Below, piece by piece: positions 1,647-31,387 of a stretch of 32,000 nt of DNA. This stretch comes from Candidatus Saccharimonadota bacterium (GTDB lineage Bacteria > Patescibacteriota > Microgenomatia > UBA1406 > GWC2-37-13), in NCBI GenBank assembly GCA_016432445.1, contig CP066689.1, positions 660,001 through 692,000 of the forward strand, written 5' to 3'. The notes below the pieces were generated by a model that had not been told where the DNA came from, ran no database searches, and worked only from the letters and a program-made list of their open reading frames with translations. Each line of letters opens with the position of its first letter. The stretch's first letter is position 1. The translations under genes and the position numbers were made by a program.

Positions 1647-1685
1647 ATACCTTAAAATTAATTAATAGTTATATATAATAAAAAA

Positions 1686-3473
1686 ATGGAACAAAAGGAA
1701 GAATTAAAAAAAATGAGACATTCTTGCGAGCACGTCTTGCATCAAGCCATGGTGGAACTTTTCCCTGGCTTAAAAAGAGCCATGGGGCCAGCGACAGATG
1801 AGGGATTTTATCTTGATTTCGATTATGACGGAAGAATTTCCGAAGAAGATTTTCCTAAAATTGAAAAAAGGATGCAAGAACTTATAAAAGCCAATTTACC
1901 TATTGTCCGCCAAGAGATCTCTATTGAAAAAGCCAGAGAAATGTTTAAAAATAATCCGTATAAACTGGACTGGGTTGACCAAATTGAAAAAAAAGGTGAA
2001 AAAGCTATTGTTTATTGGAATGGAGAACCCGAAAAAGAAGGCTCAGATGTAGATCTTTGTAAAGGTCCTCATGTAGAATCTACTGCAAAGGTGGGTCATT
2101 TTAAACTTCTTTCTATTGCCGGCGCCTACTGGCACGGCAATGAAAAAAATAAAATGTTAACAAGAATTTACGGTACTTGTTTTCAAACTAAAGAAGAACT
2201 AGATAAATATCTATGGCAGATTGAGGAAGCAAAAAAAAGAGACCACCGAAAACTCGGTCAAGATCTGGAACTTTTTACCACATCTAATGAAGTTGGCTCG
2301 GGACTGATTTTATGGCTGCCCAAAGGAACTGTTGTTAAAGAAGAACTTGAAAAATTAGGAAAAAAGACAGAAAGCAGAGAAAATTATTTAAGAGTATCAA
2401 CTCCCCATATAGCCAAAGATTCGCTTTATTATCTTTCCGGCCATTTGCCTTATTATGCTGCAGATATGTATCCGCCAATGAAAGCCGAAGACGGAACTTA
2501 TTACCTTAAACCGATGAATTGCCCTCATATGCACATGATTTATTCATCTAAGAAACATTCGTATAAAGAACTCCCAATAAGATACGCTGAATTTGGCACA
2601 GTCTATAGATACGAAGACAGCGGTACTCTACAAGGACTTTTAAGAGTAAGAGGCATGACCCAAAATGACGCTCATATTTACTGCACTGAAGAACAAGCCC
2701 TTAGTGAATTAACCAAAGTTATGAAACTCCACGATTATTACTATAAAATATTTGGTCTAAAAGATTATTACATTGAATTGGCTCTGCCGGACTTTGAAAA
2801 AAAGAAAGATAAATACTTTGATAATCCTCAAGCGTGGGAAAAATCAATAAACATATTAAGAGAAGCAGCCAAGCAATTAAACGTGGAAGTGGTTGAAAAT
2901 GTAGGAGGAGCCGCTTTTTACGGGCCAAAATTCGATTTTAATGTTAGAAGCGTTACAGGAAAAGAGTTTGGCGCTTCCACCAATCAACTTGATTTTGGAT
3001 CAGGAGAAAGATTCAATCTCAATTATACAGATAATGACGGATCTGAAAAAATTGTTCCTTATATTATTCATAGAGCACCACTTGGATCAGATGAAAGATT
3101 TATAGGCTTTTTAATTGAACATTTTGCCGGAGCTTTTCCTTTGTGGTTAGCCCCAACTCAAATTAAAATCTTACCTATATCTGAAAAGCATTTGGAGTTT
3201 GCTAAAAAAGTAAATTCTATCTTAGTTGAACAAGATATAAGAAGCGAGGTTGATGAGAAAAATACGACGGTCGGACATAAGATTAGAGAATCTACATTGC
3301 AAAAAATCCCTTATATGGTTATAATAGGAGATAAAGAAATTTCTTCATCGGAAAATTCTGGCAGAAAAAAGTTAATTATCTCAGTCAGAAGTAGAGAAGG
3401 TGAAGATCTAGGTCAAATAAATATTTATGAGTTTGTTGACAAATTAAAGGCAAAAATTGAGAACTACGAATAA
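1686..3473 (+). CDS. thrS: threonyl-tRNA synthetase (no N-terminal TGS domain)
   Basis: HSCEHVLH (HxxxH editing-domain motif) lies at residues 12-19. Class II core segments are present (YRYEDSGTLQGLLRVRGMTQNDAHIY) with a C-terminal anticodon-binding domain. The gene sits in conserved thrS-infC-rpmI-rplT-pheST synteny. Confidence 0.95.
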   Translation: MEQKEELKKMRHSCEHVLHQAMVELFPGLKRAMGPATDEGFYLDFDYDGRISEEDFPKIEKRMQELIKANLPIVRQEISIEKAREMFKNNPYKLDWVDQIEKKGEKAIVYWNGEPEKEGSDVDLCKGPHVESTAKVGHFKLLSIAGAYWHGNEKNKMLTRIYGTCFQTKEELDKYLWQIEEAKKRDHRKLGQDLELFTTSNEVGSGLILWLPKGTVVKEELEKLGKKTESRENYLRVSTPHIAKDSLYYLSGHLPYYAADMYPPMKAEDGTYYLKPMNCPHMHMIYSSKKHSYKELPIRYAEFGTVYRYEDSGTLQGLLRVRGMTQNDAHIYCTEEQALSELTKVMKLHDYYYKIFGLKDYYIELALPDFEKKKDKYFDNPQAWEKSINILREAAKQLNVEVVENVGGAAFYGPKFDFNVRSVTGKEFGASTNQLDFGSGERFNLNYTDNDGSEKIVPYIIHRAPLGSDERFIGFLIEHFAGAFPLWLAPTQIKILPISEKHLEFAKKVNSILVEQDIRSEVDEKNTTVGHKIRESTLQKIPYMVIIGDKEISSSENSGRKKLIISVRSREGEDLGQINIYEFVDKLKAKIENYE

Positions 3474-3990: not shown

Positions 3991-3991
3991 T

Positions 3992-4186: not shown

Positions 4187-4206
4187 TTATTAAGTTCAGG
4201 ATGAAT

Positions 4207-4260
4207 GGTTAAGGGCTAAGAGTTAAAACCCTAAAACCCTCAACCCTTAAACTCTAAAAC
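4207..4260. repeat. intergenic inverted heptad-word element (GGTTAAG GGCTAAG AGTTAAA / ACCCTAA AACCCTC AACCCTT AAACTCT)
   Basis: Three tandem 7-mers are followed by four roughly complementary 7-mers. TTAAGGG (4209-4215) pairs with CCCTTAA (4244-4250), and AGAGTT (4219-4224) pairs with AACTCT (4250-4255). It is related to the element at 12777-12819. Confidence 0.6.
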
Positions 4261-4265
4261 TAAAT

Positions 4266-4610
4266 ATGGTTAGAATAAAAGGCGGAACAACAACTAGAGC
4301 AAAACATAAAAAAACTCTAAAATTAGCCAAAGGCTATTGGATGACTCGAAGCAAGCATATTAAAAAAGCTAAAGAGGCGGTACTTCATGCGGGGGAGTAC
4401 GCTTTTGCAGGAAGAAAAAGAAAGAGGCGAGATTTTAGAGAACTATGGATTATAAGATTAAACGCCGCAGTCCGTCAGTCTGGATTAACCTACAGTCAGT
4501 TTGTAAACAAACTTAAAACTAAAAATATTGCTCTCGACAGAAAAGTTTTAGCTCAAATTGCGGTTGAGTATCCTAAAGCTTTTGAAAAGATAGTGGAAAA
4601 AGTGAAATGA
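4266..4610 (+). CDS. rplT: ribosomal protein L20
   Basis: [16 protein letters not shown]...[17 protein letters not shown] is a typical L20 sequence. Confidence 0.95.
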
Positions 4611-4629
4611 ACTTCGTATAATCTAAGTC

Positions 4630-5625
4630 ATGGACGATCCGGGAAAACTTTTAGACAATCTCCGTGACAAACTTAATAATGTTAAATCTTCTACCGATAT
4701 TGAAAACCTTCGCATTGAGTTCTTGGGCAGAAATGGATTAGTTAATCAGCTCTTGCAAAAAATTAAAGACGTCGCTCCAGATCAAAAGAAAGAATACGGA
4801 CAAAAAGTCAACACACTAAAATCTCAAATAGAAGAATTACTTCAAGACGAAGAAAAAGAGTTTAAACAAACAACTACATTAAATATTGATATCACTTTAC
4901 CTGGAATCAAACCCAAAGTGGGCAACCTTCATCCAACAACAATAGTCATAAGAAAAATCAATCAGTTCTTCCGTTATTTAGGCTACAGCGTTTACGAAGG
5001 CCCAGAGATTGAAACCAATGAATTTAACTTTGAAAAATTAAATCTCCCAAAAGACCATCCAGCTCGAGAACTTGCCGACACTCTTTATATACAAGAACCC
5101 GAATATCTTTTAAGAACTCATACCTCTTCTGTTGAAACAAGAGCTATGACCCAGGAAAAACTTCCATTAAGGATTGTTGTTCCTGGTAAGGTTTACCGAA
5201 ACGAAACCTCAAATCCTACCAATAATTCCATGTTTTATCAGTATGAAGGACTTATTGTTGATAAAAATATAAGTATGGCTGATTTAAAAGGTACTCTTAT
5301 TGCTTTCGTAAAGTTTCTTTATGGACAAGAAACAAAAACCAGATTCAGATGTAAATATTATCCTCAGGTTGAACCTGGTGCAGGACTTGATGTAGAATGC
5401 AAGTTTTGTCAGGGAAAAGGATGCTCAGTATGTAAATATCGCGGCTTTATTGAGGTCTTAGGTTCAGGTATGGTTCATCCTAACGTTTTAAAAAATTGCG
5501 GTATTGATCCAAAAGTTTGGTCAGGATTTGCTTTTGGTATGGGTCTAGACCGTTTAGTAATGCTTCAATATGGAATTAATGATATTAGAAAACTTTATAG
5601 CGGGGAACTAGTTTATAAAATATGA
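4630..5625 (+). CDS. pheS: phenylalanyl-tRNA synthetase alpha subunit
   Basis: DHPARELADTLY, the CKFCQGKGCSVCKYRGFIEVLGSGMVHPNVL zinc-knuckle segment and GFAFGMGLDRLVML are present. Confidence 0.95.
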   Translation: MDDPGKLLDNLRDKLNNVKSSTDIENLRIEFLGRNGLVNQLLQKIKDVAPDQKKEYGQKVNTLKSQIEELLQDEEKEFKQTTTLNIDITLPGIKPKVGNLHPTTIVIRKINQFFRYLGYSVYEGPEIETNEFNFEKLNLPKDHPARELADTLYIQEPEYLLRTHTSSVETRAMTQEKLPLRIVVPGKVYRNETSNPTNNSMFYQYEGLIVDKNISMADLKGTLIAFVKFLYGQETKTRFRCKYYPQVEPGAGLDVECKFCQGKGCSVCKYRGFIEVLGSGMVHPNVLKNCGIDPKVWSGFAFGMGLDRLVMLQYGINDIRKLYSGELVYKI

Positions 5626-7505: not shown

Positions 7506-7577
7506 ACTCATATAAATACTTAATTTTGTTGTTTATAATCCATTGTTTATCTAATCTTCACTTACTAAAATAGTTTT

Positions 7578-7895
7578 ATGTTAACTAAGGACGATTTATT
7601 GCAAATTAAAGAACTCATAGTTGAAGTCGTTCAAACTGAGACCAGAAGAATTGTAAAGGAAGAACTTGAACCTTTTAGAAAAAGTGAAGATGTTCAATTT
7701 ACAAAAATTAATGAGCGTTTTGATAAAATTGATAGGCATTTTAAAAGAATTGATTCTAAATTCTACAAAGTAGATGCTACTTTTAGGAAAGTTGGCAGAA
7801 GTATAAATATTGTAATTAAGGGATTTGATACAACATACCTAGATCTAGAAAAGAGAGTGAGTTCTATAGAAAATCATAGAAATCTTATTCCATAA
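7578..7895 (+). CDS. hypothetical coiled-coil protein with 7-residue repeats
   Basis: 105-aa ORF preceded by TTGTTT-17-TAAAAT-6 nt-ATG. It contains an internal repeat ERFDKID RHFKRID SKFYKVD ATFRKVG. Confidence 0.6.
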   Translation: MLTKDDLLQIKELIVEVVQTETRRIVKEELEPFRKSEDVQFTKINERFDKIDRHFKRIDSKFYKVDATFRKVGRSINIVIKGFDTTYLDLEKRVSSIENHRNLIP

Positions 7896-7905
7896 TTTTG
7901 TCCAC

Positions 7906-7991
7906 AAAAAAAGCCCTAAGTGATTATCGTTGAAAATTGCGTGTTACGCAAGTGGGGAGCAACGTTGCTCCCCTGTGAAAACCACTAGGGC
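7906..7991 (-). terminator. compound (three-way-junction) intrinsic terminator of the minus-strand island operon
   Basis: On the minus strand GCCCUAGUG (7983-7991) pairs with CACUUAGGGC (7913-7922), followed by U7 (7906-7912). Enclosed are a perfect 8-bp hairpin GGGGAGCA-ACGT-TGCTCCCC (7954-7973) and TGCGT-gtt-ACGCA (7938-7950). Confidence 0.55.
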
Positions 7992-8029
7992 TGGATTACG
8001 CACGTCATTGTGCGCTTCGCGGAAAGCCT

Positions 8030-8281
8030 CTACCTGTGGCGTCGGCATAGACGTGGTAGTTTTAACGGTTGTCCGCTGCCAGTGGTCATCATGACCTTAG
8101 ATGACAATAGAAACAGCGTTATCACCAAGATGATTATCACGATGTCAGTCAACCCAATAACGGATGTTTGTATGGCATGAGCAATGTAAACGCCGGCCAC
8201 AACACCCGCCACCCAGAACACTACAACCGAGCCAAAGAATGGTCCGATGATCTGCCAAAATGAATCGTTTGGCTTTTTCAT
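8030..8281 (-). CDS. small membrane protein (2 predicted TM helices, strongly basic C-terminal tail)
   Basis: The preferred start is ATG at 8281 (MKKPNDSFWQ..), 5 nt after a strong SD AGGAGGTGA. The ORF-track start at 8317 has no such signal. The C-terminus is KLPRLCRRHR. G+C is well above the flanking genome. Confidence 0.65.
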   Translation of the reverse strand: MKKPNDSFWQIIGPFFGSVVVFWVAGVVAGVYIAHAIQTSVIGLTDIVIIILVITLFLLSSKVMMTTGSGQPLKLPRLCRRHR

Positions 8282-8285
8282 TTTC

Positions 8286-8507: not shown

Positions 8508-8547
8508 TTAGTCAATCTTCGAGTGAAGACTGCCAAACAAAGGATAA

Positions 8548-8624: not shown

Positions 8625-8669
8625 TTGTGATATATTATCTTCTATTTAGCAATCTCCACTTTGCTTTCC

Positions 8670-8785: not shown

Positions 8786-8815
8786 AAAGACTATCGGGTA
8801 AGATAAAATTTAAAA

Positions 8816-9367
8816 ATGGACAAATTAAAAAAACTTGAAGCAATAGCAAAGAAGATTGAAAATTGTGACGAATGTAAAATAGGAAAAATAGGCAAAGCCG
8901 TTGTTGGTGAAGGTAATCCAGATGCTGATATTATGTTTATTGGTGAAGCTCCGGGAAAAGAAGAAGCCAAGGTTGGCCGGCCATTTATTGGCCGATCTGG
9001 AAAACTACTTCGGTCGTTAATCAGAGAAGCAGGATTAAAAGAAGAAGATGTTTATATTACTAGTCCAGTTAAGTATTTACCCGAAAGAGGCACTCCCACA
9101 AAAGAAGATATTGTCCATGGACGGAAATATTTGTTTGAGCAAATCAATATCATCCAACCAAAAATTTTAGTGCTTTTAGGAAGAGTCGCTACAGAAGCTG
9201 TAATTCAAGAGAAATATCCTGTGATGAAAATGAGGGGAAAGATAATTGAGAAAGATGGAAGAAAATATTTTCTCACTTTGCACCCAGCTGCAGTTTTAAG
9301 AAACCCCCCAAATAGAAAATTCCTCATCGAAGACTTCCAAAAACTCAAAAAACTACTAAATAGTTAA
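8816..9367 (+). CDS. uracil-DNA glycosylase, family 4
   Basis: GEGNPDADIMFIGEAPG and GRPFIGRSGKLL motifs, an N-terminal CDEC, and HPAAVLRN near the C-terminus. Confidence 0.9.
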   Translation: MDKLKKLEAIAKKIENCDECKIGKIGKAVVGEGNPDADIMFIGEAPGKEEAKVGRPFIGRSGKLLRSLIREAGLKEEDVYITSPVKYLPERGTPTKEDIVHGRKYLFEQINIIQPKILVLLGRVATEAVIQEKYPVMKMRGKIIEKDGRKYFLTLHPAAVLRNPPNRKFLIEDFQKLKKLLNS

Positions 9368-10180: not shown

Positions 10181-12754
10181 TTAAGGAATAGGGGAAGAAG
10201 TAATGGTAACTGTTTGAGTTGGAGTGGGAGTAACTGAATCCCAGGCTACATTAACTCCAAACTTAACTGCCGAATCTGCAGATTTATCTTTTTCATTACG
10301 AGCAACAATTTTTACTTCATGCACTCCTGTTGAAATATTTATCGGTTCAATAATCTCATTTCTATCGCCGTCATATTCTTTGATTTTATTATTATCCAAG
10401 AAGACCTCTACTTTTTTTACAGCTGACAAAGATGTGATTCTGGCTCTTATCTCCACATTGTTAGAATCAAGATTTGATTTATCAGAAGGAGATTTAATTG
10501 AAACAATGATATCTTCTGAAAAGCTATCTGATACTTCTGTCGGCGGCTTCATTTTATCATCGCCCTGACCTCTCATCCAAGCATCAATTGCTTCCTGCCA
10601 GCGGTTTCTACCATCAGTTGAAACCGGGTCATTTTCTGTAAACAGAACGTACTCTTTTTCTTCGTAATTGCCTTGTTTAATCTCAACTTCATTGGCTAGT
10701 TTTGCCATATTAGATCGGGATAATTTTATTTTTTTGTAGAGAGATGATATTTCTTTAGGCTCTGTCCCTTCGATAAAATACTCAGAACGGGAAGGAAATC
10801 CATCTCTTGGCAATCCACCCGTAAGTGAATCTATAGTAAAGGCTTTTACTTTCTCAGGTTTATCCATAATACCGTCTTCATATTTTTTAAGAAGTTCAAG
10901 CATTAAATCATGCCATATTGGCGAGGCTCCGGTCACGCCTGATGCGATCTTTGGATTCATCACCGAGTTATCATTGTTGCCAACCCAAGCACCAACAGTT
11001 ACTGACTTTGTAAATCCAACCGCCCAGTTATCTCTTTTATCGTCTGTGGTACCAGTTTTGACTGCTACTGTTTTACCTCCAATTTTTAAATATGAATTAG
11101 GACCAAAAACATCTAGGCGGGCATTATTGTCCGATAAGATATTAGAAACTAAATAAGCCGACTCAGGAGATAGTAATTTTAGCGGGCGTGATTTAACACT
11201 TTTATATATTATCTTACCTTTAAAGTCAGCAACTTCATTTATAGCTTGTATATCTTCTTTTACTCCACCTCTAGCAAATACTGAAAAAGCTGAGGTTAAA
11301 TCAAGCAAGGTCGTTTCTCCGCCTCCTAAAGTAATTGAAAGACCGTATTTTTTTAAATTGTCAGGAGTCGGTGCAAGAGTCTTCAATCCCATTTCATCAG
11401 CTTTACTTAAAAAATCTCTAACCCCAACCATAGCTAAAAGTTTAACTGCAGGGATATTGTGGGAGTTGCCTAATGCAAACCTCAGCTGAACCGGACCTCT
11501 GAATTTTCCATCATAGTTTACAGGAATATAATCTTTATCGCCCTGATTTGGAAATACAGTCTCCACATCCATAAGCACTGTGGCAGGTGTGTAGCCTTTC
11601 TCAAAAGCCAAAGCATAAGTAAGCGGTTTCATAGTAGAACCCGGTTGACGCTGACCTAAAGCAGCATTAAACTTTCCATACTCCTCATTAGAAAAATCAT
11701 AAGAACCGACCATAGCTAATATCTGTCCCGTTTGAGAATCAAGCACGACAACAGCTCCATTGCCTACATCAAGTCCTTCCAAACTTTCAATCTCATTCTT
11801 GACTATTTTTTCAGCTGCTAGTTGAACCTCGAGAGAAAGAGTTGTTTTTATCTTTAATCCTTGATCTAAGATTTTGCTTCCAAACTCTTTTTCAAGAAGA
11901 TCTTTGACATAAAAAACAAAATGAGGAGCTGTAATGCTCAACTTCTGACTGGTAAATTTATAATTTTCAAGATCTTTAATTGTTTGCTGTTCTTGAGCTT
12001 TAGTAATGTATCCATCTTCTCTCATCCGTCTTAAAACACTTTTTGCCCTCCCTCTCCAGGCATTATCTTTTCCAATAAAGGGGGAATAGTAAGTTGGACT
12101 TTGTGGTAATCCTGAAAGTATGGCTGACTCAAGCAGATTCAAATCCTTTGCCTGTTTACCAAAGTAACCGCGTGCGGCTGACTCAACGCCCCAAAAACTT
12201 CCGCCATAGGGCGCCTCGTTTAAGTACATCTCAAGAATTTGATCTTTCGAGTATCTTCTCTCAACCTCAATAGCAAGCATAATCTCTTTGATTTTTCGTG
12301 AGGCTGTTCTTTGTGAATCAAGCAGAACATTTTTAATAAGCTGTTGGGTAATTGTTGAACCTCCTTGAGTACCTCTTCTTAAAACTATACTTAGGAAAGC
12401 TCTGATGATTCCTTGTTCAGAGATGCCTTGGTGCTTGTAAAAATCTTTATCTTCAATTGCAACCGTACCTTTCTTTAAATAATCTGAGATGTTTTCCGAA
12501 ATGACAGGAACTCTGTTTTTATCTTTATACATTTCATAAAGAACCTTGCCTTCTCTATCATAAAATACCGTAGAGTTTATAGTTGACTGCGATAATTTTC
12601 CCGGTGAAGGCAGATCTTTAGCATACCAGGCAAAAATACCTAACGAAAAGATAAATCCAACTATTACGACAGCAATTATTCCAAACATAATACGAAGCAT
12701 GATCTTTTGCCGAAGATATTCTTTCTGAACTCGTGAGCGGCGGGAGGAATACAT
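10181..12754 (-). CDS. bifunctional class A penicillin-binding protein (PBP1A type) with C-terminal extension
   Basis: N-terminal TM segment. GT51 motifs EDKDFYKHQGI, GGSTITQQL and RKIKE. Transpeptidase motifs STMKP, SHN and KTGTT. A C-terminal region of about 200 aa ends in the Thr/Pro-rich TPTPTQTVTITSSPIP. Confidence 0.92.
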   Translation of the reverse strand: MYSSRRSRVQKEYLRQKIMLRIMFGIIAVVIVGFIFSLGIFAWYAKDLPSPGKLSQSTINSTVFYDREGKVLYEMYKDKNRVPVISENISDYLKKGTVAIEDKDFYKHQGISEQGIIRAFLSIVLRRGTQGGSTITQQLIKNVLLDSQRTASRKIKEIMLAIEVERRYSKDQILEMYLNEAPYGGSFWGVESAARGYFGKQAKDLNLLESAILSGLPQSPTYYSPFIGKDNAWRGRAKSVLRRMREDGYITKAQEQQTIKDLENYKFTSQKLSITAPHFVFYVKDLLEKEFGSKILDQGLKIKTTLSLEVQLAAEKIVKNEIESLEGLDVGNGAVVVLDSQTGQILAMVGSYDFSNEEYGKFNAALGQRQPGSTMKPLTYALAFEKGYTPATVLMDVETVFPNQGDKDYIPVNYDGKFRGPVQLRFALGNSHNIPAVKLLAMVGVRDFLSKADEMGLKTLAPTPDNLKKYGLSITLGGGETTLLDLTSAFSVFARGGVKEDIQAINEVADFKGKIIYKSVKSRPLKLLSPESAYLVSNILSDNNARLDVFGPNSYLKIGGKTVAVKTGTTDDKRDNWAVGFTKSVTVGAWVGNNDNSVMNPKIASGVTGASPIWHDLMLELLKKYEDGIMDKPEKVKAFTIDSLTGGLPRDGFPSRSEYFIEGTEPKEISSLYKKIKLSRSNMAKLANEVEIKQGNYEEKEYVLFTENDPVSTDGRNRWQEAIDAWMRGQGDDKMKPPTEVSDSFSEDIIVSIKSPSDKSNLDSNNVEIRARITSLSAVKKVEVFLDNNKIKEYDGDRNEIIEPINISTGVHEVKIVARNEKDKSADSAVKFGVNVAWDSVTPTPTQTVTITSSPIP

Positions 12755-12776
12755 GGAGTAAATTATACAATATTTT

Positions 12777-12819
12777 AGTTATGAGTTAAATCCAGAACCC
12801 ATAACCCATGACTCTTAGC
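12777..12819. repeat. intergenic inverted heptad-word element (AGTTATG AGTTAAA / AACCCAT AACCCAT GACTCTT)
   Basis: GTTATGAGTT (12778-12787) pairs with AACCCATAAC (12797-12806) with one mismatch. It shares the words AGTTAAA, AACCCWN and ACTCT with the element at 4207-4260. A T8 run follows at 12820-12827. Confidence 0.6.
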
Positions 12820-12843
12820 TTTTTTTTGGAGTATAATTTGTGT

Positions 12844-12960
12844 ATGAAAAAAATATTAAAGTTTGTAAAAATGAAAACTTTATTAAAAGTCTTGGTCATC
12901 ATATCGGGCATCATGCTTGTCCTTTCAAGTTTAGCTCTACCACTTTTGTCAATACGATGA
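12844..12960 (+). CDS. 38-codon hydrophobic upstream ORF coupled to recG
   Basis: MKKILKFVKMKTLLKVLVIISGIMLVLSSLALPLLSIR. The ATG lies 6 nt after TATAAT (12832-12837). Its TGA (12958-12960) overlaps the recG ATG (12957-12959) as ATGA. It is not in the ORF track (under 60 aa). Confidence 0.45.
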   Translation: MKKILKFVKMKTLLKVLVIISGIMLVLSSLALPLLSIR

Positions 12961-15107: not shown

Positions 15108-15136
15108 TTGAATCTTCAGATAAACTGTTATATAAT
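15108..15136 (+). promoter_or_regulatory. promoter TTGAAT-17 nt-TATAAT, 6 nt upstream of the rpmF ATG
   Basis: TTGAAT at 15108-15113 and TATAAT at 15131-15136, with the ATG at 15143. The predicted transcription start coincides with the start codon. Confidence 0.6.
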
Positions 15137-15142
15137 TAGCAC

Positions 15143-15295
15143 ATGACTCCACAACCTAAGCGCAAACATTCAACTCAAAGAAAAGGCAAAAGACTAGCGA
15201 CACGCATAGCAAACAATATGCCCAAACTTGTAAAATGCAAACAATGCGGAAACCAGAAATTGCCCCACCGTTTGTGCCGAAATTGCAATAAATAG
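15143..15295 (+). CDS. rpmF: ribosomal protein L32
   Basis: 50-aa ORF MTPQPKRKHSTQRKGKRLATRIANNMPKLVKCKQCGNQKLPHRLCRNCNK with a CxxC...CxxC zinc ribbon. It is not in the ORF track (under 60 aa). Confidence 0.88.
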   Translation: MTPQPKRKHSTQRKGKRLATRIANNMPKLVKCKQCGNQKLPHRLCRNCNK

Positions 15296-15691: not shown

Positions 15692-16379
15692 TAAATATCA
15701 GCCTCTGGAAAATACAATCGGAATAAAGTTTAAAAATAAAAAACTTTTAGAGAATGTCTTCGTTCATAGATCATATTTAAATGAACATAAAAACTTCTAC
15801 CTGCCTTCAAATGAAAAGCTGGAATTTCTAGGAGATAGTGTTTTATCGTTAGTAACTTCCATTTATTTATATAAAAATTATCCTAATCTTGCCGAGGGCG
15901 ACTATACAGACATAAAGGCATCAATCGTACGTACAGAAAGTCTAGGAGAAGAAGCAAAAAATATCCAGATAGGACGCTATTTACTCCTTTCAAAAGGAGA
16001 AGAGAAAGGAAAAGGTAAGGAAAATATCAATATTCTTGCTGACTGTTTTGAAGCCTTAATCGCAGCTATTTTCATTGATAGAGGCTTTGATGAAGCCTAC
16101 GATTTCATACTAAAATATTTATTTAAAGATAAATTGACGTATATTATTGAAAAAAAACTTTATTTATCTCCAAAAAGCCGTCTTCAAGAAATAATTCAGG
16201 CTGAATATAAAATTTTACCTGATTACAAAATACTTGAAGAAAAAGGACCAGAACATATGAAAACTTTTAAGGTTGGCGTTTATCTTCATGATAAAAAACT
16301 CGGTGTTGGCAGTGGAAATTCCAAAAAACAAGCTGAAGAAACTGCCGCCAAAAATGCGCTGGAAAAAACTGCAGTTTAA
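15672..16379 (+). CDS. rnc: ribonuclease III
   Basis: NEKLEFLGDSVL signature, ADCFEALIAAIF, and a C-terminal dsRBD (KKQAEETAAKNALEK). The start is ATG 15672 or 15684, overlapping the nusB end. Confidence 0.92.
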   Translation: MIKKMTNKYQPLENTIGIKFKNKKLLENVFVHRSYLNEHKNFYLPSNEKLEFLGDSVLSLVTSIYLYKNYPNLAEGDYTDIKASIVRTESLGEEAKNIQIGRYLLLSKGEEKGKGKENINILADCFEALIAAIFIDRGFDEAYDFILKYLFKDKLTYIIEKKLYLSPKSRLQEIIQAEYKILPDYKILEEKGPEHMKTFKVGVYLHDKKLGVGSGNSKKQAEETAAKNALEKTAV

Positions 16380-16394
16380 GGTTATAATATTACC

Positions 16395-16634
16395 ATGGCA
16401 GTCACAATCAGATTAATGAGATTCGGAAAAAAGAAATATCCCACTTATAGAGTTATTGCTGTCGACAAAAGGAAAAAAAGAGATGGCAGTTATTTGGAAA
16501 AAATCGGAACTTATAACCCAATGACTAACCCTGCTACATTAGATATAAATAAAGAAAAATTTGATTACTGGTTAGCAAATGGCGCTCAGCTTTCTGAAGG
16601 AATAATAAAACTGCTAAAAAACAGAAAGGTATAA
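16395..16634 (+). CDS. rpsP: ribosomal protein S16
   Basis: MAVTIRLMRFGKKKYPTYRVIAVDKRKKRDG... It is preceded by TGGAAA-17-TATAAT-6 nt-ATG. Confidence 0.93.
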   Translation: MAVTIRLMRFGKKKYPTYRVIAVDKRKKRDGSYLEKIGTYNPMTNPATLDINKEKFDYWLANGAQLSEGIIKLLKNRKV

Positions 16635-17912: not shown

Positions 17913-18931
17913 AGCGATCCTCCAATAACTCCGGAAAAAGATGATAATGTATTTGCAAATGACTGCGTAACAGGATTTTCTACCAATATTTCTTTCAAAT
18001 TAAGAGTTGTTGTTGACAAAGATGTTAACTCAGCTATCTTTTTATCAAAAAAAGAAATATTGTTATCATAATTACAAAGAAGTATCGTGTTTATATCAAG
18101 ATTGAAATGTGATTTGGCTAAAGCGGTAAATTTACTTATCTCTCCAGCAAACTCCTTAAGTACAGGACTTAGAATTACCTCCGTATCATAAGATCCTCCT
18201 TTGGCAAAACCTACGGTCTTTAGAATTTCAAGACTTTTTTTCTCATCTATATTAAGATTAACATCTAAATCCTTCCTAAATAAATCTAATCCAATCTTAA
18301 AGTTACGAGTTAATATAATAAAAGAACTCTGTGGATTTATTAAATATAAGGAGCTTGATGAAAAACCAAAATTAACAACTAAAACTGTTTTGTCTTTATA
18401 TAATTTGCTTAATTTTTCTTTATAAAGCCTTCCTACAGCTGATAACTCATTTTCAAGATTTCCTGCTCTTAAGCCAGCTAATTCTATTATTCTTTCAATA
18501 CGTGTAACTAACTTTTTGGGAGCGGCCACTATAAGCACTAAAAAATTTTTAGTAATTGGATCTTCGCTTAAAATTTCTATATCCAGTTCTGTTTCATCAA
18601 GCGGCATAGGAATAAACTCATCTGATTGATAGCGGATGGCTGATAATAATTCTTTTTCTTTAAGAGACGGCATTTGAATTATTTGAGAATATGTATAAGT
18701 ATCAGGAATCATAACATTGATCACTCTTTTTTTTATTTTCAAGCTTGTGTATAGTCTCATTAATATTTCTGCCTGTTTATCAATGGCTTGAGGACTTTCA
18801 GAGTTGAAAAAAAAGGGTATTGTATCGGCAACTCCAAGCGAAGTTATTTCTATTTTGTCTCCTGATGACTTTAAGTCGCAAATACGGGTATATTTTTCTT
18901 GTAAATCTAGACTGAAAGCAGTATCTGACAT
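17909..18931 (-). CDS. pilM: PilM-like actin-fold type IV pilus assembly ATPase
   Basis: 340 aa, cytoplasmic, with an FSLDL... N-terminus typical of PilM/FtsA-like proteins. It lies directly upstream of the pilN/pilO-like genes. Confidence 0.7.
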   Translation of the reverse strand: MSDTAFSLDLQEKYTRICDLKSSGDKIEITSLGVADTIPFFFNSESPQAIDKQAEILMRLYTSLKIKKRVINVMIPDTYTYSQIIQMPSLKEKELLSAIRYQSDEFIPMPLDETELDIEILSEDPITKNFLVLIVAAPKKLVTRIERIIELAGLRAGNLENELSAVGRLYKEKLSKLYKDKTVLVVNFGFSSSSLYLINPQSSFIILTRNFKIGLDLFRKDLDVNLNIDEKKSLEILKTVGFAKGGSYDTEVILSPVLKEFAGEISKFTALAKSHFNLDINTILLCNYDNNISFFDKKIAELTSLSTTTLNLKEILVENPVTQSFANTLSSFSGVIGGSL

Positions 18932-18981
18932 GAGATTAAGTATTAAAAAAAATCACCATTAAGTCAAGAGAATAATGGATC

Positions 18982-20015: not shown

Positions 20016-20020
20016 AAAAA

Positions 20021-20903: not shown

Positions 20904-20904
20904 A

Positions 20905-21337: not shown

Positions 21338-21811
21338 TCAATCCTGACTAACTACATAACATTTGCGTGGACTGGAGCAAGAATAACTTCCACAATATGA
21401 ACTACAGGTAAGGCCATCAGTATCGGCTGTATTTTCAAGACAGGCGCAAAGAGTAAAAGAAGAACTGCTGGGTCTATTATAATAATAAGGAAAGGGAGTC
21501 AATGTTTGAGGATCACCTGGAGTTTTATTTAAATAGATAGCTGTACTGGTCGGACATGGTGGAGCTCCTGACCCGCCTGAATACCAGCAATTACCAACTG
21601 AAGGCAAGGAAGTCGTCGGATAAGCTTGAGGTGTTTGATCCTGCTGATACATTTCTAAGGCTTTCTGAATCACTCTTAAATCACTTTTTCTTTGAGAATC
21701 GCGGGCTCTTTCACGCGCTCCCATAAAGTTAGGAAGAAGTAAAGCGCTTAGGCCGGCAATTATCGCGATAACTACGAGAAGTTCAATTAATGTAAAAGCC
21801 CGTTTATGCAT
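21338..21811 (-). CDS. GspG/PulG-like pilin, Cys-rich C-terminus (tandem paralogue 1)
   Basis: MHKRA|FTLIELLVV (Ala at -1), [21 protein letters not shown], and ten Cys in the C-terminal half. Confidence 0.8.
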
Positions 21812-21856
21812 TTATCTTAATACTAATATAGAGCTTCATTGAAAGTCAATAGAAAG

Positions 21857-21881: not shown

Positions 21882-22562
21882 TTAGGAATATATTTTATGA
21901 ATAAACAATAAAATATTATCAATCGTTAACTGCGGATTAAGATTATTGTTTTGTAACAAATCTTTAAGACTCATTATCTTTTTTATAATCTTGCTGGCTT
22001 TAACTCCATCAACAGCTAATCGCTGACGATAATAGAATATTATTTCTTCCAAAAGCTGAATTAGATCTTCTTTCGACGGTGATTGAATAACAGATTGATT
22101 AAGAAAACTTAAGCCATCATTTTTTTCTGTTATTTCAAGTAAAGTTTTTGTTGAAGGACTAATTTTATAATTAGTGAAATCATTAAGATTTATGATCTTA
22201 GTTCTCGACCTGATTGTTGGTAATATTTTTTCAATATTTTTTAACGGAAAAATAAATTGATTTTTCACATGGTTTTCCTCAAGAGTTTTAAGAAGAGCAT
22301 TTTGTACTTCAAGCCCGGAAACATCTAGCGCTTCAATAATAAAAAGCCTCTTATTTGAAAAAGAGATTTTAAGTTCTTTCTTTAATAATCTGATTTGATC
22401 AATAGCCAACTCTGTTTTAACAGGCTTAATTGAATAAATAAAATTAGAAAGAAAAGACTCATCTTTAATAATCTTCTTTATATAGTCAGCTAAACGTTTT
22501 TGGTCATTGGAAACAATTATTAGCGGAATCATATTCTCTCTCTTGCATTTTATCACAAACAT
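21882..22562 (-). CDS. holB: DNA polymerase III delta-prime-like clamp-loader subunit (no P-loop)
   Basis: VQNALLKTLEE and LPTIRSRTKII (the SRC-like motif) are present, but there is no Walker A in the N-terminal region. An alternative start is ATG 22532. Confidence 0.7.
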   Translation of the reverse strand: MFVIKCKRENMIPLIIVSNDQKRLADYIKKIIKDESFLSNFIYSIKPVKTELAIDQIRLLKKELKISFSNKRLFIIEALDVSGLEVQNALLKTLEENHVKNQFIFPLKNIEKILPTIRSRTKIINLNDFTNYKISPSTKTLLEITEKNDGLSFLNQSVIQSPSKEDLIQLLEEIIFYYRQRLAVDGVKASKIIKKIMSLKDLLQNNNLNPQLTIDNILLFIHKIYS

Positions 22563-22578
22563 CCCTATATTTTAAATT

Positions 22579-24294
22579 ATGATGATCTCTCCTAAAACTT
22601 TTCTATCAGAACTGGTAAAAGGCGGTATTCTTGACCAATCATCAGCCGATAGATATGAAATAGATTCTATTCAAAAAAATCTGCCTATAGATAATTATTT
22701 GCTTCAACAAACAGAGATTAAAAAAGAAGATATCCTAAAGGTGAAAGCTCATTTTCTTAATGTGCCATATATTGATATCTCCACTGCAGCTGTTGATCCT
22801 CAAGCTCTAGGTTTAATCTCAGAATCAATTGCCAGAAAGGATAATATTCTGCCATACCTTTATGATTCAAAAAAAGAAACTATTTACATCGCCACAGAAG
22901 ATCCTCTTAATCTTTCGCTGGCAGATTTTTTAGAAAGAAAAACAGGGAAAAAAGTAATGCTGGCACTGGGTTTTCTTGATGATATCGGAAAAACCATCGG
23001 TATTTCTTACACTCAAGGATTATCACCGGAAGTTAAAGAAGCATTGCAGGAAGTATCAACTCAATCAACACCTTTAGAACGACAGGGTGACTCAAGTACT
23101 TCAGTCCATGAACCACCTATTGCTAAAATTGTTAATACCATACTTGAGTTTGCGGTAAAAAGCAGAGCTTCAGATATTCATATTGAACCACAGGAAATTA
23201 AGAGCCGTGTCAGATATCGCATTGACGGTATACTACAGGAAAAACTTTCACTTCCACGAGGCTTACATGATTCACTTATTTCAAGAATAAAAATACTTTC
23301 AGAAATGAAGATTGATGAAAAAAGAATACCTCAGGACGGAAGATTTAATTTTAAACTAGGAAATGAAGAGGTTGATCTTCGTGTTTCCTCCCTTCCAACA
23401 GTCAATGGAGAAAAAATCGTCATGAGGCTTTTAAAAAAAACTGGAGGACTACCTTCTTTGACTGAACTTGGCTTAAGAGGAATCCAGTTTAAGGATCTTG
23501 AAGAAAGCTTCAATAAACCTTATGGAATCATTCTTATTACCGGTCCTACAGGATCAGGTAAAACAACTACTCTATACTCAATACTGACAAGACTTAATAA
23601 GCCTGGTGTTAATATTGTTACTCTGGAGGATCCGGTTGAATATCAGATCCCAGGAATTAATCAGGTACAGATTAACCCACAGGCTGGGTTAACATTCGCC
23701 AATGGTCTTAGATCTTTTCTTCGTCAAGACCCAAATATTATACTCGTGGGAGAAATCCGTGATAAAGAAACAACTCAACTGGCAATCCAGGCGGCCTTAA
23801 CCGGTCACTTAGTTTTTTCAACCCTGCATACTAATGACTCTGCGACAGCGATTCCAAGACTTATAGATCTTGGCGGAGAACCTTTTTTAATCGCCTCTGT
23901 AATTAATGCTTCCGTCGCTCAAAGAATTGCCCGCAAAGTATGCACATACTGTAAAGAACTGTACGAACCTGACCCTAAAATTCAGACACAAATTAAAGAA
24001 GGACTTGGAGAACTTTTGCCAAAAATTTATAAAGAAGGACAGCCAATGAAAATTGCTCGAGGAAAAGGCTGTAATGAATGCGGTAACTCAGGTTACTTGG
24101 GAAGAATAGCTATTTTTGAAGTTTTGAAAATTACACCTGTTATAAATAAAATGATTCTGCAGGAATCATCAGCCAAAGAGATTGAAACTCAAGCCAGGAA
24201 AGAAGGATTAATTATCATGCTCCAGGACGGATATTTAAAGGTTTTGGAAGGAATAACTACCATTGAGGAAGTTTTAAGAGTTGCCAATGTATAA
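22579..24294 (+). CDS. pilB: type IV pilus assembly (extension) ATPase PilB/GspE family
   Basis: N-terminal GspE_N-like domain, GPTGSGKTTT Walker A, Asp/His boxes, and a tetracysteine CTYC...CNEC. Confidence 0.92.
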   Translation: MMISPKTFLSELVKGGILDQSSADRYEIDSIQKNLPIDNYLLQQTEIKKEDILKVKAHFLNVPYIDISTAAVDPQALGLISESIARKDNILPYLYDSKKETIYIATEDPLNLSLADFLERKTGKKVMLALGFLDDIGKTIGISYTQGLSPEVKEALQEVSTQSTPLERQGDSSTSVHEPPIAKIVNTILEFAVKSRASDIHIEPQEIKSRVRYRIDGILQEKLSLPRGLHDSLISRIKILSEMKIDEKRIPQDGRFNFKLGNEEVDLRVSSLPTVNGEKIVMRLLKKTGGLPSLTELGLRGIQFKDLEESFNKPYGIILITGPTGSGKTTTLYSILTRLNKPGVNIVTLEDPVEYQIPGINQVQINPQAGLTFANGLRSFLRQDPNIILVGEIRDKETTQLAIQAALTGHLVFSTLHTNDSATAIPRLIDLGGEPFLIASVINASVAQRIARKVCTYCKELYEPDPKIQTQIKEGLGELLPKIYKEGQPMKIARGKGCNECGNSGYLGRIAIFEVLKITPVINKMILQESSAKEIETQARKEGLIIMLQDGYLKVLEGITTIEEVLRVANV

Positions 24295-25359: not shown

Positions 25360-25360
25360 T

Positions 25361-26560: not shown

Positions 26561-26591
26561 TAAAAATAGTTTATTTCAAAAAAAATTGCCC

Positions 26592-26621
26592 TTGACAAAC
26601 TAAAAAAGATTATTATATGAT
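26592..26621 (+). promoter_or_regulatory. promoter TTGACA-18 nt-TATGAT (or 16 nt-TATATG) upstream of the pilin gene
   Basis: Consensus -35 TTGACA at 26592-26597, TATGAT at 26616-26621, and the ATG at 26631 with no SD. Confidence 0.55.
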
Positions 26622-26630
26622 GAAATTTAT

Positions 26631-27149
26631 ATGAAAATCACCAAGAAAGGTTTTACTCTAGTTGAATTACTTATCGTAATTGCACTTCTTGGTGCTTTAG
26701 CTGTCGGTTTACTTGCCGCTCTTGATCCATTCGAACAACTTAAAAAAGGCAATGACACTGGAACTAGAAATTTAGTTTCAGAAGTGCAAGGAGCAGTAAT
26801 CCGATATTACGCACTCAAAGGATGGATGCCTTGGTGTACTGCTACAGATACATGCGATGACATAAGTTCTGCTACTAATTTATCAAGTTCTCCAATGGAC
26901 GATGCGATAAGTAGAATCGTGGATTCGGGCGAACTGAAAGCTGATTTCACTTCCTTAGCTGCAAGTAATTTAGGAAAAGTATTTGTGACAGGAGACGCAA
27001 ACAATGCAAAGGTATGTTTTCAGCCAACGTCTAAGTCATTCAAGTGTGATCCCAATACTAAATTTCAGCAAAATGGAGATGCAGCCGCTGACCCAGCTGA
27101 CTGCACAACTAGTTGTGGAACCAACACCTGCTACTGGTGCGTAAAATAA
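26631..27149 (+). CDS. prepilin-type pilin with its own strong promoter (candidate major pilin)
   Basis: MKITKKG|FTLVELLIV, 172 aa. The C-terminal region has 9 Cys (WCTATDTC, KVC, KC, DCTTSCGTNTCYWC). Confidence 0.8.
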   Translation: MKITKKGFTLVELLIVIALLGALAVGLLAALDPFEQLKKGNDTGTRNLVSEVQGAVIRYYALKGWMPWCTATDTCDDISSATNLSSSPMDDAISRIVDSGELKADFTSLAASNLGKVFVTGDANNAKVCFQPTSKSFKCDPNTKFQQNGDAAADPADCTTSCGTNTCYWCVK

Positions 27150-27178
27150 AATAAATGTTTGAGTAAAGCATAATCTGC

Positions 27179-29152: not shown

Positions 29153-31340
29153 TTAAATAAACAATACTCCGTATTAAAATAGTATATCTAAGTATAGGAA
29201 AATCATATTCTAGCTTTACTATGTGTTTTCCCTGCGGCACAAGAACTGATTGCATCTTCCAATTAGTCCTATAGATATTTGTATTTTCACCGTCTACGAA
29301 GGCTTTCCAATGTAGAGAAAATGAACGATTGAAAACCAAAAGCTTTGGTCTAGCCGTGCTACTAACGATTTCTATTTGTGTGGGCTCGTTCTTTCTAACA
29401 ATTAACTCCTTTTTCAAGCCTCTTTCTATGGAGATTCCCTTACTTAATTTACTATCACTTTCCACCAATGCCACGTCGTTTCCTATATCAGACATTAAAT
29501 CCTTGAATTCATCAGTATTACTATAACTTTTAATATCTTTTGCAAAGTAAATATCGCTATGACCATTATTAAACTTGTATATTTTATAAGTCATTCCTAA
29601 TTTATTATTTTTTGGAGTTTCGTAAACCTTAGCTAACTTTTCCGTAGATACTTGGTCGAGTACATAAGGTGTAATAATATAATTAACTCCTGCCATTTCT
29701 AAAAAAGAAAGCGATCTATTTGAAAGAGTAACCTTCAAATCAGTATATTTAATCCCATCATTAATTAACGAAAGGAAATAATAATCATCTTTACTGGAAA
29801 AAAAAGATGATGTAAAAGTTTGAACTGAAGGAATTTTATAAATTAGATTCAATTTAGGATCAATCGAGTTTTGAAGGAATTTATACACATTAATATCATC
29901 CCACCCCTTCTTTGTAAAATAATCGAGCCAGATGTAATTCAAACCCAGAGAAAAATATTTATTGTCGTTTGTTTTTTTTAAATAACTAACTGTATGCGGT
30001 TCTTCAATCCAGCTTTTATATTCGACAATCGGATGATAATTAAAAAAATTTAGAAATAGATCAAATACAGTTATTGATATGACTAAAAAAGGCAGAAAAG
30101 GAAGTTTTTTTTTAATTATTTTTTTTGTTTTTAAATCTTTGAATGCAAAACCTGCCATGAGACTAACGAAAATAACAACCACTACCATAAATCGTGTCGG
30201 TCCCCTAAATAAGCTAAATGGAAACATGTATGAAATTAAATAGAAAGGTGAATTTTTTCCAAGAGCAAGAACAAAAAAAAATACAATTAAAATTGTAATT
30301 AACTTCATGAATTTATTTTTTTTCAAAACAAACAACGAATAAACAAACAGTAGAAACGGCAATATTCCAATATATAAATTACTCTCCCAAAAAATATCAC
30401 CATCAACCCCGTTTGTGACGTAACTGCCATTTTTAGGACTACCAAAAATATAAGGATTAATGAATGTTAATAAGTTTCTGATAGGAAAAGAAGGAAATAG
30501 ACTATTTAAAGAATTTAATCTGCTATTTCTCACCGAATTAAGAAACAAATCACCTACCGAAACAATTTCAGGTAAAGACAGAATGAAAAAAAGGATTAGC
30601 GATCCAATCATGTTCCATATAGTGAATGAATCAACTTTTCTTAGTTTTAATATTCTTGAGATTAGAACATAAACCAGCAGTGCCACAAAAGTAATGAAAG
30701 TCAATTGAAACTGACCGTTGGAAAATTGAAGATTGAGTAATATAACGAGAATCAAAGACATTGTAATCTTTTTTACTTTATTTTCTGCAATGATTACCGT
30801 ATCTAAAACAAACATTATTAAGGGGATGTAGGCTATGTTTTGCAATAAAGTATAATGGGAAATTTTAAAAATCATTAGGCCTGAAAACATAAATGTAATG
30901 GCACTAAAAAATGATGAAATTCTATCTAGTTTCATTCTTCTTCCCACTAAAAATACCCCCACTCCAGCAATAAAAAAAGCCAAGACATAACCTAAATTAA
31001 AAGCAAAAGGCATTGGAAAAAACTTATAAATTAAATAATTTATTGGATTCAGGTAGGCAATTTGACCATCGGCCGTTAATGACATTCCATTAAGAAGCAG
31101 GTCTGTATATTCTTGAAATGTCGAATGCTTTAAACCGTCAGACAGAAAATATTTCTCAGCAAAGGTATAATGCCATAAATCAGATGTTTGAAAATCAGGA
31201 GTAACGATAACCTTTTGGCCAGAAATAAATAACTTATTGAAAAAGATTAACGATAAAACAAAAATAAGTAGTAAAATTAAGAAGGTTTTTAGACTAGTTT
31301 CTCTTTTTTTTACCATCTGCCAAATTGACATAGGTGACAT
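29079..31340 (-). CDS. large polytopic membrane protein, YfhO-like GT-C glycosyltransferase candidate
   Basis: 753 aa with many TM helices in the N-terminal two thirds, a large extracytoplasmic C-terminal domain and a final TM anchor. TATAAT lies 7 nt upstream of the ATG. The family call is tentative. Confidence 0.45.
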   Translation of the reverse strand: MSPMSIWQMVKKRETSLKTFLILLLIFVLSLIFFNKLFISGQKVIVTPDFQTSDLWHYTFAEKYFLSDGLKHSTFQEYTDLLLNGMSLTADGQIAYLNPINYLIYKFFPMPFAFNLGYVLAFFIAGVGVFLVGRRMKLDRISSFFSAITFMFSGLMIFKISHYTLLQNIAYIPLIMFVLDTVIIAENKVKKITMSLILVILLNLQFSNGQFQLTFITFVALLVYVLISRILKLRKVDSFTIWNMIGSLILFFILSLPEIVSVGDLFLNSVRNSRLNSLNSLFPSFPIRNLLTFINPYIFGSPKNGSYVTNGVDGDIFWESNLYIGILPFLLFVYSLFVLKKNKFMKLITILIVFFFVLALGKNSPFYLISYMFPFSLFRGPTRFMVVVVIFVSLMAGFAFKDLKTKKIIKKKLPFLPFLVISITVFDLFLNFFNYHPIVEYKSWIEEPHTVSYLKKTNDNKYFSLGLNYIWLDYFTKKGWDDINVYKFLQNSIDPKLNLIYKIPSVQTFTSSFFSSKDDYYFLSLINDGIKYTDLKVTLSNRSLSFLEMAGVNYIITPYVLDQVSTEKLAKVYETPKNNKLGMTYKIYKFNNGHSDIYFAKDIKSYSNTDEFKDLMSDIGNDVALVESDSKLSKGISIERGLKKELIVRKNEPTQIEIVSSTARPKLLVFNRSFSLHWKAFVDGENTNIYRTNWKMQSVLVPQGKHIVKLEYDFPILRYTILIRSIVYLIIITTILLLIFRKFLYNRLPSLHL

Positions 31341-31387
31341 AGGTAAGATTATACATTAAAATGATCAATCTTAATTTAACTTAAAAA

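Follow-up and report, generated by a model that had tools for sequence, protein, structure and literature searches.

The stretch of DNA analysed here, referred to below as the window, comprises 32,000 nucleotides of contig CP066689.1 (positions 660,001 to 692,000 of the forward strand) from a genome labelled Candidatus Saccharimonadota bacterium, and has a GC content of 34%. It contains the genes thrS-infC-rpmI-rplT-pheST, a PBP1A gene divergent to recG, the group rpmF-nusB-rnc-rpsP, a type IV pilus cluster and yfhO. We are concerned with hexamers resembling the -10 box of bacterial promoters that lie 6-7 nt ahead of many start codons in this window, an arrangement that points to leaderless mRNAs, i.e. 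transcripts that begin at the start codon. Contigs from six Logan runs (range SRR12113384 to SRR12113428) are 100% identical to the window. A tRNA search of the window found none.

-10 boxes and start codons in the window

The original prediction had listed eleven sets of hexamer, gap and ATG. Every one was found again on re-reading, and the gaps are all 6 or 7 nt. Seven of the hexamers are exact TATAAT (thrS, pheS, PBP1A, the open reading frame (ORF) ahead of recG, rpmF, rpsP and yfhO), three are TAAAAT (orf7578, udg and the holB-like gene) and one is TATATT (pilB). The -35-like hexamers reported at 17 nt are likewise present for pheS, orf7578, rpmF, rpsP and pilB. Three further cases, pilM, the head of the pseudopilin operon and pilin, were absent from that list. 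The start codon is ATG in all window cases. The features are as follows, with spacers in nt between the elements.

1652..1688, + strand: thrS promoter P2 and start, TTAAAA(1652)-16-TATAAT(1674-1679)-6-ATG(1686)
4594..4632, + strand: pheS promoter within the end of rplT, TGGAAA-17-TATAAT(4617-4622)-7-ATG(4630)
7543..7580, + strand: orf7578, TTGTTT-17-TAAAAT(7566-7571)-6-ATG(7578)
8804..8818, + strand: udg, TAAAAT(8804-8809)-6-ATG(8816)
12752..12789, - strand: PBP1A, TTAACT-16-TATAAT(complement of 12762-12767)-7-ATG(12754)
12808..12960, + strand: ORF ahead of recG, ATGACT-18-TATAAT(12832-12837)-6-ATG(12844)
15108..15145, + strand: rpmF, TTGAAT-17-TATAAT(15131-15136)-6-ATG(15143)
16360..16397, + strand: rpsP promoter within the end of rnc, TGGAAA-17-TATAAT(16383-16388)-6-ATG(16395)
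18929..18967, - strand: pilM, TTGACT-17-AATACT-7-ATG(18931), the -10 being weak (4/6)
21809..21849, - strand: pseudopilin operon head, TTGACT-18-TAGTAT-8-ATG(21811)
22543..22597, both strands: holB-like gene and pilB back to back, ATG 22562 (-) and ATG 22579 (+), 16-nt spacer
26592..26633, + strand: pilin, TTGACA-18-TATGAT-9-ATG(26631)
31338..31353, - strand: yfhO-like gene, TATAAT(complement of 31348-31353)-7-ATG(31340)

The gap of 9 nt at pilin implies a leader of 2-3 nt at most. The holB-like gene and pilB are the most compact case. The -10 box of the former (TAAAAT, complement of 22569-22574) overlaps that of the latter (TATATT, 22566-22571) on the other strand, and the -35 boxes of the pair lie within the opposite genes, that of pilB (TTGCAT, 22543-22548) being inside holB. 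In other words, the 16-nt spacer has room for neither a 5' untranslated region (UTR) nor a Shine-Dalgarno (SD) sequence on either side.

The association with start codons was evaluated by comparing 37 curated start codons with the 904 other ATG triplets on both strands. An exact TATAAT at a gap of 6-7 nt precedes 7/37 curated starts vs 1/904 other ATGs (Fisher 6e-10), so that the earlier statement that seven such boxes are far beyond chance is upheld. If a strict -10 is defined by A2 and T6 being fixed and at least 5/6 positions matching TATAAT, the counts at the same gaps are 11/37 and 11/904 (4e-11). The i.i.d. (independent, identically distributed) expectation from the local AT-rich upstream composition is 0.16 (P=5e-10). 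The 22 ATGs with a strict -10 at this distance include ten at the head of conserved genes or of sizeable ORFs (50-857 codons), plus one that starts the 38-codon ORF before recG; the other 11 belong to ORFs of 3-28 codons, save one 76-codon antisense ORF. Generic sigma-70-like promoter matches are at the level of shuffled sequence (52 and 67 found vs 57 and 62 expected), so that the meaningful statistic is the positional coupling to starts and not promoter density.

Two kinds of case call for correction. First, pheS and rpsP had been counted as operon heads, but by spacing they are not, since only 19 nt separate pheS from rplT and 15 nt separate rpsP from rnc. This short distance, together with -35 elements (both TGGAAA) that lie in the upstream coding sequence, marks their promoters as internal ones and not as heads behind a terminator. 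Second, the arrangement had been said to pick the start codon of recG. The ATG at 12844 opens a separate 38-codon ORF in another frame, and recG itself starts at 12957. The ORF (12844-12960) is hydrophobic (MKKILKFVKMKTLLKVLVIISGIMLVLSSLALPLLSIR) and its TGA at 12958-12960 forms an ATGA with the ATG of recG, an overlap that suggests translational coupling. It is not conserved in the relatives L009 or L083. We note that a run of seven A directly follows its ATG and could hide a frameshift.

A few observations on the neighbouring genes may be added. The longest-ORF rule makes the two pseudopilin ORFs 19575-20096 and 20514-20993 too long; by their prepilin signatures, MKKNAFTLIE and MKKKNDGFTLIE, the starts are at 20015 and 20903, with which the apparent gene overlaps of 76 and 89 nt vanish. 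At 29079-29152 a TMEM260/PMT_2-like glycosyltransferase gene (+) and the yfhO-like gene (-) are convergent and their 3' ends overlap by 74 nt. Finally, an element of ~30 nt at 12775-12808, between PBP1A and recG, recurs in the MreB/Wzy_C intergenic region of the same genome (L163, 1357-1431), i.e. at another divergent pair of cell-envelope genes. Its parts are TGGGTTATGGGTTCTG and AGTTATGAGTTAAA, of which the second has opposite relative orientations at PBP1A/recG and at MreB/Wzy_C. The element could represent an operator or else a small repeat.

Comparison with related loci

A scan with threonyl-tRNA synthetase (ThrRS) gave 80 loci of ~20 kb for comparison (L numbers). Of these, 34 are titled as candidate phyla radiation (CPR), 14 are third-party annotation (TPA) metagenome-assembled genomes (MAGs) with implausible labels and CPR-like behaviour, and ~30 non-CPR loci (Bacteroidota, Balneolales, Clostridia and others) served as controls. 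The best ThrRS matches (65-56% identity) come from MAGs that carry the labels Parcubacteria SURF_62, WWE3, Microgenomates and Woesebacteria; these matches and the gene content of the window point to CPR/Patescibacteria, and the species-representative collection contains no genome of the same species. Gene order in the nearest relatives, L009 and L083, agrees with that of the window, at 55-67% protein identity. Gene calling in the related loci was naive, the first ATG of every long ORF being taken as the start. A metagenome scan with RecG returned mainly distant, largely gut (non-CPR) relatives, with L083 alone close, and was used for ortholog checks only. The contig of the window itself was followed for ~4.7 kb past the window (L163) and 1.25 kb ahead of it (L001).

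Among 432 CPR-titled genes, exact TATAAT stands at gaps 6/7/8 in 12/6/7 cases, and among 144 CPR-like genes in 6/2/5; other offsets in CPR have ~0.6 each, and the 476 non-CPR genes have 0/0/0 at the same gaps. The strict box at 6-8 nt reaches 5-9 times the background in Microgenomates-type, WWE3/Kazan, 'Patescibacteria group', Saccharibacteria-labelled and TPA loci. No enrichment was seen in a small sample of Gracili/Peregrinibacteria or in the non-CPR loci. The 117 CPR genes that carry a box have gaps of 6 (49 genes), 7 (35), 8 (23) and 5 nt (10).

The distribution of gaps bears on one alternative, namely that the promoters are real but many transcripts have a leader of 1-5 nt, start inside the ORF or use a downstream AUG as the true start, with strictly leaderless messages being a minority. 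It is true that gaps span 4-10 nt (glycosyltransferase (GT) gene 4, pseudopilin head 8, pilin 9, Thr leader peptide 10) and that thrS has a second in-frame AUG at codon 10. N. lyticus, the sole CPR species with transcription start site (TSS) data, is reported to have unusually variable distances from the -10 box to the TSS (PMC12641261). Nevertheless, the peak at 6-7 nt is sharp, and at this distance the canonical +1 position is occupied by a purine, namely the A of the ATG. The ThrS N-termini differ little in length between the window, L009 and L083 and resemble one another loosely (MEQKEELKK, MDSKNLEA and MDSSNLGA), and very short 5' UTRs cannot hold an SD sequence and would presumably be translated like leaderless ones. 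We regard this alternative as unlikely and favour a transcription start at the A of the ATG or directly beside it.

The nature of the motif was investigated by an unbiased search for hexamers enriched 5-8 nt ahead of the ATG. The CPR loci gave TAGAAT, TATAAT, TACAAT, TAACAT, TAAAAT and TATCAT; the same test in the non-CPR controls gave AAGGAG, GGAGGT and similar hexamers. A TANNNT family in which G or C is tolerated mid-hexamer is a sigma-70 signature and not plain AU-richness. When the 117 genes are aligned on the box, T(-17), T(-15) and G(-14) are found in 61%, 67% and 54%, respectively, compared with 33/34/17% around -10-like controls at off-target offsets, and we read this pattern as the TRTGn extended -10 of Gram-positive-type promoters. 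TTG occurs at spacer 17 in 14 of the 117 genes and at spacer 18 in 6, with 0-4 at other spacers. Neither the TRTGn nor the TTG signal was part of the box selection criteria.

The box also depends on the codon and on the position of the gene. In the N-terminal zones of CPR genes it precedes 11.6% of in-frame ATG, 4.7% of GTG and 2.3% of TTG codons, compared with ~1.2% for codons deep within genes. A division of genes into heads and internal ones by gap size proved too crude (18% vs 21%) and was replaced by internal cistrons defined through orthologs. In these the box is practically missing: pheT 0/22, rpmI 0/15, rplT 1/42, nusB 0/7 and rnc 0/4. We note that the rpmI-rplT spacer of the window (4187-4265) contains AAACCCT-like repeats (aaaaccctaaaaccctcaaccctt) and has neither a -10 box nor an Rfam L20-leader match.

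These results weigh on a second alternative, in which the UAUAAU-like motif is an AU-rich non-SD ribosome-binding or standby element on leadered RNA, as in the Bacteroidota (group B-like), and not a promoter. The rarity of SD-like motifs (~10-13% of genes) means that some SD-independent recruitment must exist, and the motif also stands before genes with very short upstream gaps. The strongest argument in favour of it is that the read-through RNA of the thrS attenuator described below must be translated from just this AU-rich context. However, A2 and T6 are invariant while G or C is allowed at positions 3-5 (TAGAAT, TACAAT), which is the sigma-70 pattern, and TRTGn and TTG at spacer 17 accompany the motif. 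Internal cistrons need ribosomes too, yet they are the ones without it, and the 16-nt holB/pilB spacer leaves no non-coding room for another promoter. Because of the hexamer enrichment, the flanking promoter signals and the control by operon position of orthologs, we consider this second alternative very unlikely; the hexamers are, judging by these patterns, promoter -10 elements positioned relative to the start codon.

Individual boxes are also maintained at orthologous genes. A strict -10 at 5-8 nt precedes thrS in 20/46 CPR loci without conservation of the surrounding nucleotides. For rpmF, 2/3 orthologs have a -10 at 6-8 nt, and for PBP1A 3/9 have a box (TATACT/TAGAAT at 6-7 nt in L083, L009 and L010). 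In L009 and L083 the box is maintained at thrS, pheS and PBP1A, again in non-conserved surroundings; the pheS box (TATAAT, gap 6) is retained among relatives in these two only. A chance or AT-rich compositional artefact, to which promoter-like matches at the shuffled level and 51 copies of TATAAT in the window might point, has next to no probability and is refuted by the coupling to real starts (P ~1e-9 to 1e-10), by its conservation at orthologous genes and by a peak that is confined to CPR and missing from AT-rich non-CPR control loci.

Two observations belong beside the ortholog comparison. In L083 (1172-1190) the first ATG of the thrS ORF sits inside TATAATG, and the likely true start is the ATG 7 nt past the box (MDSSNLGAMRHSCEH), which lies 9 nt downstream of the first one and aligns with L009. 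Upstream of pheS in the CPR relatives L016, L039, L014, L010 and L027 there is a GC-rich hairpin followed by a T-run that ends 0-10 nt before the ATG, e.g. gggagtttttttattatATG.

The claims of the original prediction on SD sequences agree with what we find: none is present at the boxed starts, and the two examples at internal cistrons, GGAGG before pilN and AGGAGGTGA before the ORF at 8281, are confirmed. Overall, SD-like tetramers lie upstream of ~10-13% of the genes of the window and the CPR loci, compared with 23% in the mixed controls; in two Clostridia control loci they precede 12/20 and 12/22 genes. Some Parcubacteria are without an anti-SD (PMC9297842). The internal cistrons are closely packed, with junctions of -17 (thrS/infC), -4 (pheS/pheT), -20 (nusB/rnc), -4 (pilM/pilN), -20 (pilN/pilO) and +1 (pilT/pilC). 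The region that holds the second SD example, 7930-8510 between orf7578 and udg, has a GC content of 47% vs 34%. It harbours, on the minus strand, a pair of small hydrophobic ORFs that overlap (8286-8507 and 8030-8281/8317); one of the two has the textbook SD. Gene calls on contig L001 show nothing there. The region may be a foreign insert.

A candidate attenuator ahead of thrS

The thrS gene, which carries one of the exact boxes, has a second element upstream of it. Between orf1302 and thrS we find a promoter, a short Thr-rich ORF and a terminator in an order reminiscent of leader-peptide attenuators. The element and its counterparts in the related loci are as follows.

1507..1646, + strand: candidate thrS attenuator, with promoter, 15-codon ORF, four pairing regions and terminator
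L009 9857-9985: thrS leader of a relative
L012 9898-10000: thrS leader of a relative
L032 3619-3778: thrS leader of a relative
L004 9845-9985: thrS leader of a relative
L008 9841-9967: thrS leader of a relative

The promoter, TTGAAA-17-(TG)TATAAT(1530-1535), matches 11/12 consensus positions and lies 10 nt from the ATG at 1546. The leader ORF (MRKISSYETTTTTFS*, 1546-1593) has 15 codons, including five consecutive Thr codons. The pairing regions are CUCC (region 1, 1587-1590), GGAGG (region 2, 1596-1600), CCUCC (region 3, 1625-1629) and GGAGG (region 4, 1635-1639, followed by T7), so that the terminator reads CCTCC-GAATA-GGAGG-T7. According to sequence inspection and minimum free energy folds only, the GGAGG just past the stop of the leader peptide is able to pair with the CCUCC of the terminator. 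A ribosome stalled at the Thr codons would leave region 2 free, and pairing of regions 2 and 3 would permit read-through; a ribosome that reaches the leader stop would mask region 2 and the terminator would form.

The arrangement of Thr run, GGAGG and terminator is also found in L009 (MIQNILTTTTYLL), L012 (MNLVTTTTTVAL) and L032, whereas L004 and L008 have Thr-rich mini-ORFs only. In these five loci the mini-ORFs lie 64-103 nt upstream of thrS. The leader peptide is itself near-leaderless: in the window, L008 and L032 a -10 box stands 7-10 nt ahead of its ATG. An Rfam scan of the whole window (E<=1) gave two sub-threshold chance matches only, with no T-box, L20 leader or Thr leader, and no family matched the thrS leader element. 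By analogy we looked for Phe-rich leader peptides upstream of pheS, and found none in the CPR loci. In the Bacteroidota loci L052 and L054 (12898-12957) a Phe-rich mini-ORF (MTCRLFPFFFYRV...) overlaps the pheS start; it is possibly a pheM-like leader peptide outside the Proteobacteria.

The joint presence of attenuator and box in distant lineages (window, L009 and L012) suggests that both are used. It is thus probable that thrS has two sources of expression, namely a leadered read-through transcript that is subject to regulation and the box 6 nt ahead of its ATG.

The element shares with the E. coli thrL and pheM-pheST leaders a short ORF of cognate codons (here five Thr), four pairing regions and a U-tract terminator. 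It differs from classic leader-peptide attenuators in that it would govern thrS and not a biosynthetic operon, and it occurs in CPR, outside the phyla in which such leaders were listed (PMC2965389). The attenuator may perhaps be a more original item than the leaderless arrangement itself.

Probable leaderless initiation in the window and in CPR

We consider it highly probable that the window represents a low-GC CPR genome in which roughly half of the transcription units are leaderless. The original proposal of pervasive leaderless mRNAs, in which the -10 box would set the transcription start at the A of the start codon or beside it, is supported by the peak in CPR loci, the TANNNT family, the TRTGn and TTG-17 signals, the preference for ATG and the absence of the box at internal cistrons. 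Across 49 bacteria the -10 box generally stands ~7 bp ahead of the TSS (PMC12641261), and in the leaderless 'group C' genomes it lies 6-8 nt before the start codon, the same distance as here (PMC6028130). We infer that transcription starts on the A, that ribosomes bind the 5'-AUG directly and that internal cistrons are mainly coupled.

In such a scheme the sigma-70/sigma-A holoenzyme would read a weak -35 (TTG), a 17-nt spacer, often TRTGn, and a TANNNT/TATAAT -10. The box ends 6-8 nt before the ATG, and RNA synthesis would begin on or beside the A of the start codon. The 5'-terminal AUG would then be bound by the ribosome without SD pairing, comparable to the 70S/IF2/fMet-tRNA pathway of Actinobacteria and Deinococcus. 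Promoters would often lie hidden within the final part of the gene ahead of them (pheS, rpsP) or within a divergent neighbour (holB/pilB), which fits a compact genome. Downstream cistrons, without a box and mostly without an SD, would rely on coupling through overlapping or abutting stop and start codons and on an occasional SD.

Several observations weigh against this picture or limit it. The claim that nearly every unit has the box does not hold. It is missing at rplT and at the ORF at 8507, as well as at 6-8 nt from five further heads on the same contig, i.e. the MTase (window 31388), T2SSG, Wzy_C, MreB and ubiB genes of the L163/L001 extension. The tally is 11 strict plus 3-4 near cases among ~23 heads, approximately half to two-thirds. 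In other words, the geometry is frequent but not universal. With crude gene calls the box precedes 21% of genes with short co-directional gaps vs 18% of 'heads', which means either that many promoters are internal or that part of the signal has another cause. At gap 6, TAAAAT and TAGAAT bring a stop codon into frame, which slightly favours calls of the 'first ATG'; exact TATAAT at gaps 6-7 is unaffected. The -35 elements are weak, an exact TTG at spacer 17-18 being present in only ~17% of cases. Finally, thrS lies 40 nt past the conserved attenuator terminator; a leadered thrS mRNA must exist too, one that is translated without an SD.

Among known systems the architecture is closest to group C, which comprises Actinobacteria (M. 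tuberculosis, M. smegmatis, Streptomyces, Corynebacterium) and Deinococcus-Thermus (D. deserti), with an estimated 25-60% of transcripts being leaderless and carrying AUG or GUG at the 5' end (PMC6028130; bioRxiv 10.1101/2022.07.25.500264). The share of boxed heads found here is within or slightly over that range. In group C as defined by GeneMarkS-2, a Pribnow/TANNNT box likewise stands 6-8 nt before the start codons of first genes. These genomes are mostly of high GC and have a clear SD at leadered and internal genes, whereas here the GC content is 34% and SD-like motifs are as scarce as described above; the window and the CPR loci thus depart from the group C expectation of SD-type ribosome-binding sites at such genes. 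The Gram-positive-style extended -10 (TRTGn) is a feature of the present loci when set against group C. The architecture fits group C on every feature compared but one, namely that the non-leaderless genes are not SD-rich.

In the literature consulted, the only low-GC members of group C are Mycoplasma (code 4), which share with the window a reduced low-GC genome and a -10 near the starts, and for which 30-60% leaderless transcripts are predicted (bioRxiv 10.1101/2022.07.25.500264). They differ in phylum and in genetic code; the window uses TGA as a stop, as at the end of the ORF before recG. CPR lineages are unmentioned in that work (bioRxiv 10.1101/2022.07.25.500264). Archaeal leaderless genes (group D) resemble ours in that first cistrons have no 5' UTR and no SD while internal cistrons are handled otherwise. 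The archaeal TATA box/B recognition element lies ~23-26 nt upstream (PMC6028130; bioRxiv 10.1101/2022.07.25.500264), whereas here a bacterial -10 lies at 6-8 nt. The Bacteroidota (group B) are similarly SD-poor with AT-rich upstream regions. Their motif stands before all genes, internal ones included, and is no promoter (PMC6028130); in the present loci conserved internal cistrons are without the motif, -35 and extended -10 partners accompany it, and the Bacteroidota control loci show no peak.

Our literature search found no paper that links leaderless mRNAs with CPR/Patescibacteria in substance. The mechanism itself is known, but as a property of a lineage it appears to be unreported. Annotation pipelines of the GeneMarkS-2 type would probably model leaderless CPR starts implicitly. 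More tentatively, and with slightly more doubt than confidence, we suggest that leaderless initiation could be the main mode for first cistrons across a large part of CPR (Microgenomates-type, WWE3/Kazan and several unnamed Patescibacteria lineages), with SD pairing being marginal (<~15% of genes).

The finding is useful for both annotation and genetics of CPR. Gene finders that rely on SD sequences can overlook start codons which the -10 box pins down, as in L083 thrS or the 'recG' start of the window, and the consensus TTG-17-TRTGnTATAAT-6/7-ATG is a ready design of an expression cassette for the emerging genetics of Patescibacteria. CPR ribosomes are pared down, and leaderless mRNAs combined with few SD sequences would say how the radiation initiates translation. 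They also bear on the idea that leaderless initiation is ancestral. If leaderless initiation is indeed the main mode across a large part of CPR, a major low-GC radiation with reduced ribosomes would run on leaderless, SD-independent initiation, and even its regulatory leader peptides (the thrS attenuator) would be leaderless.

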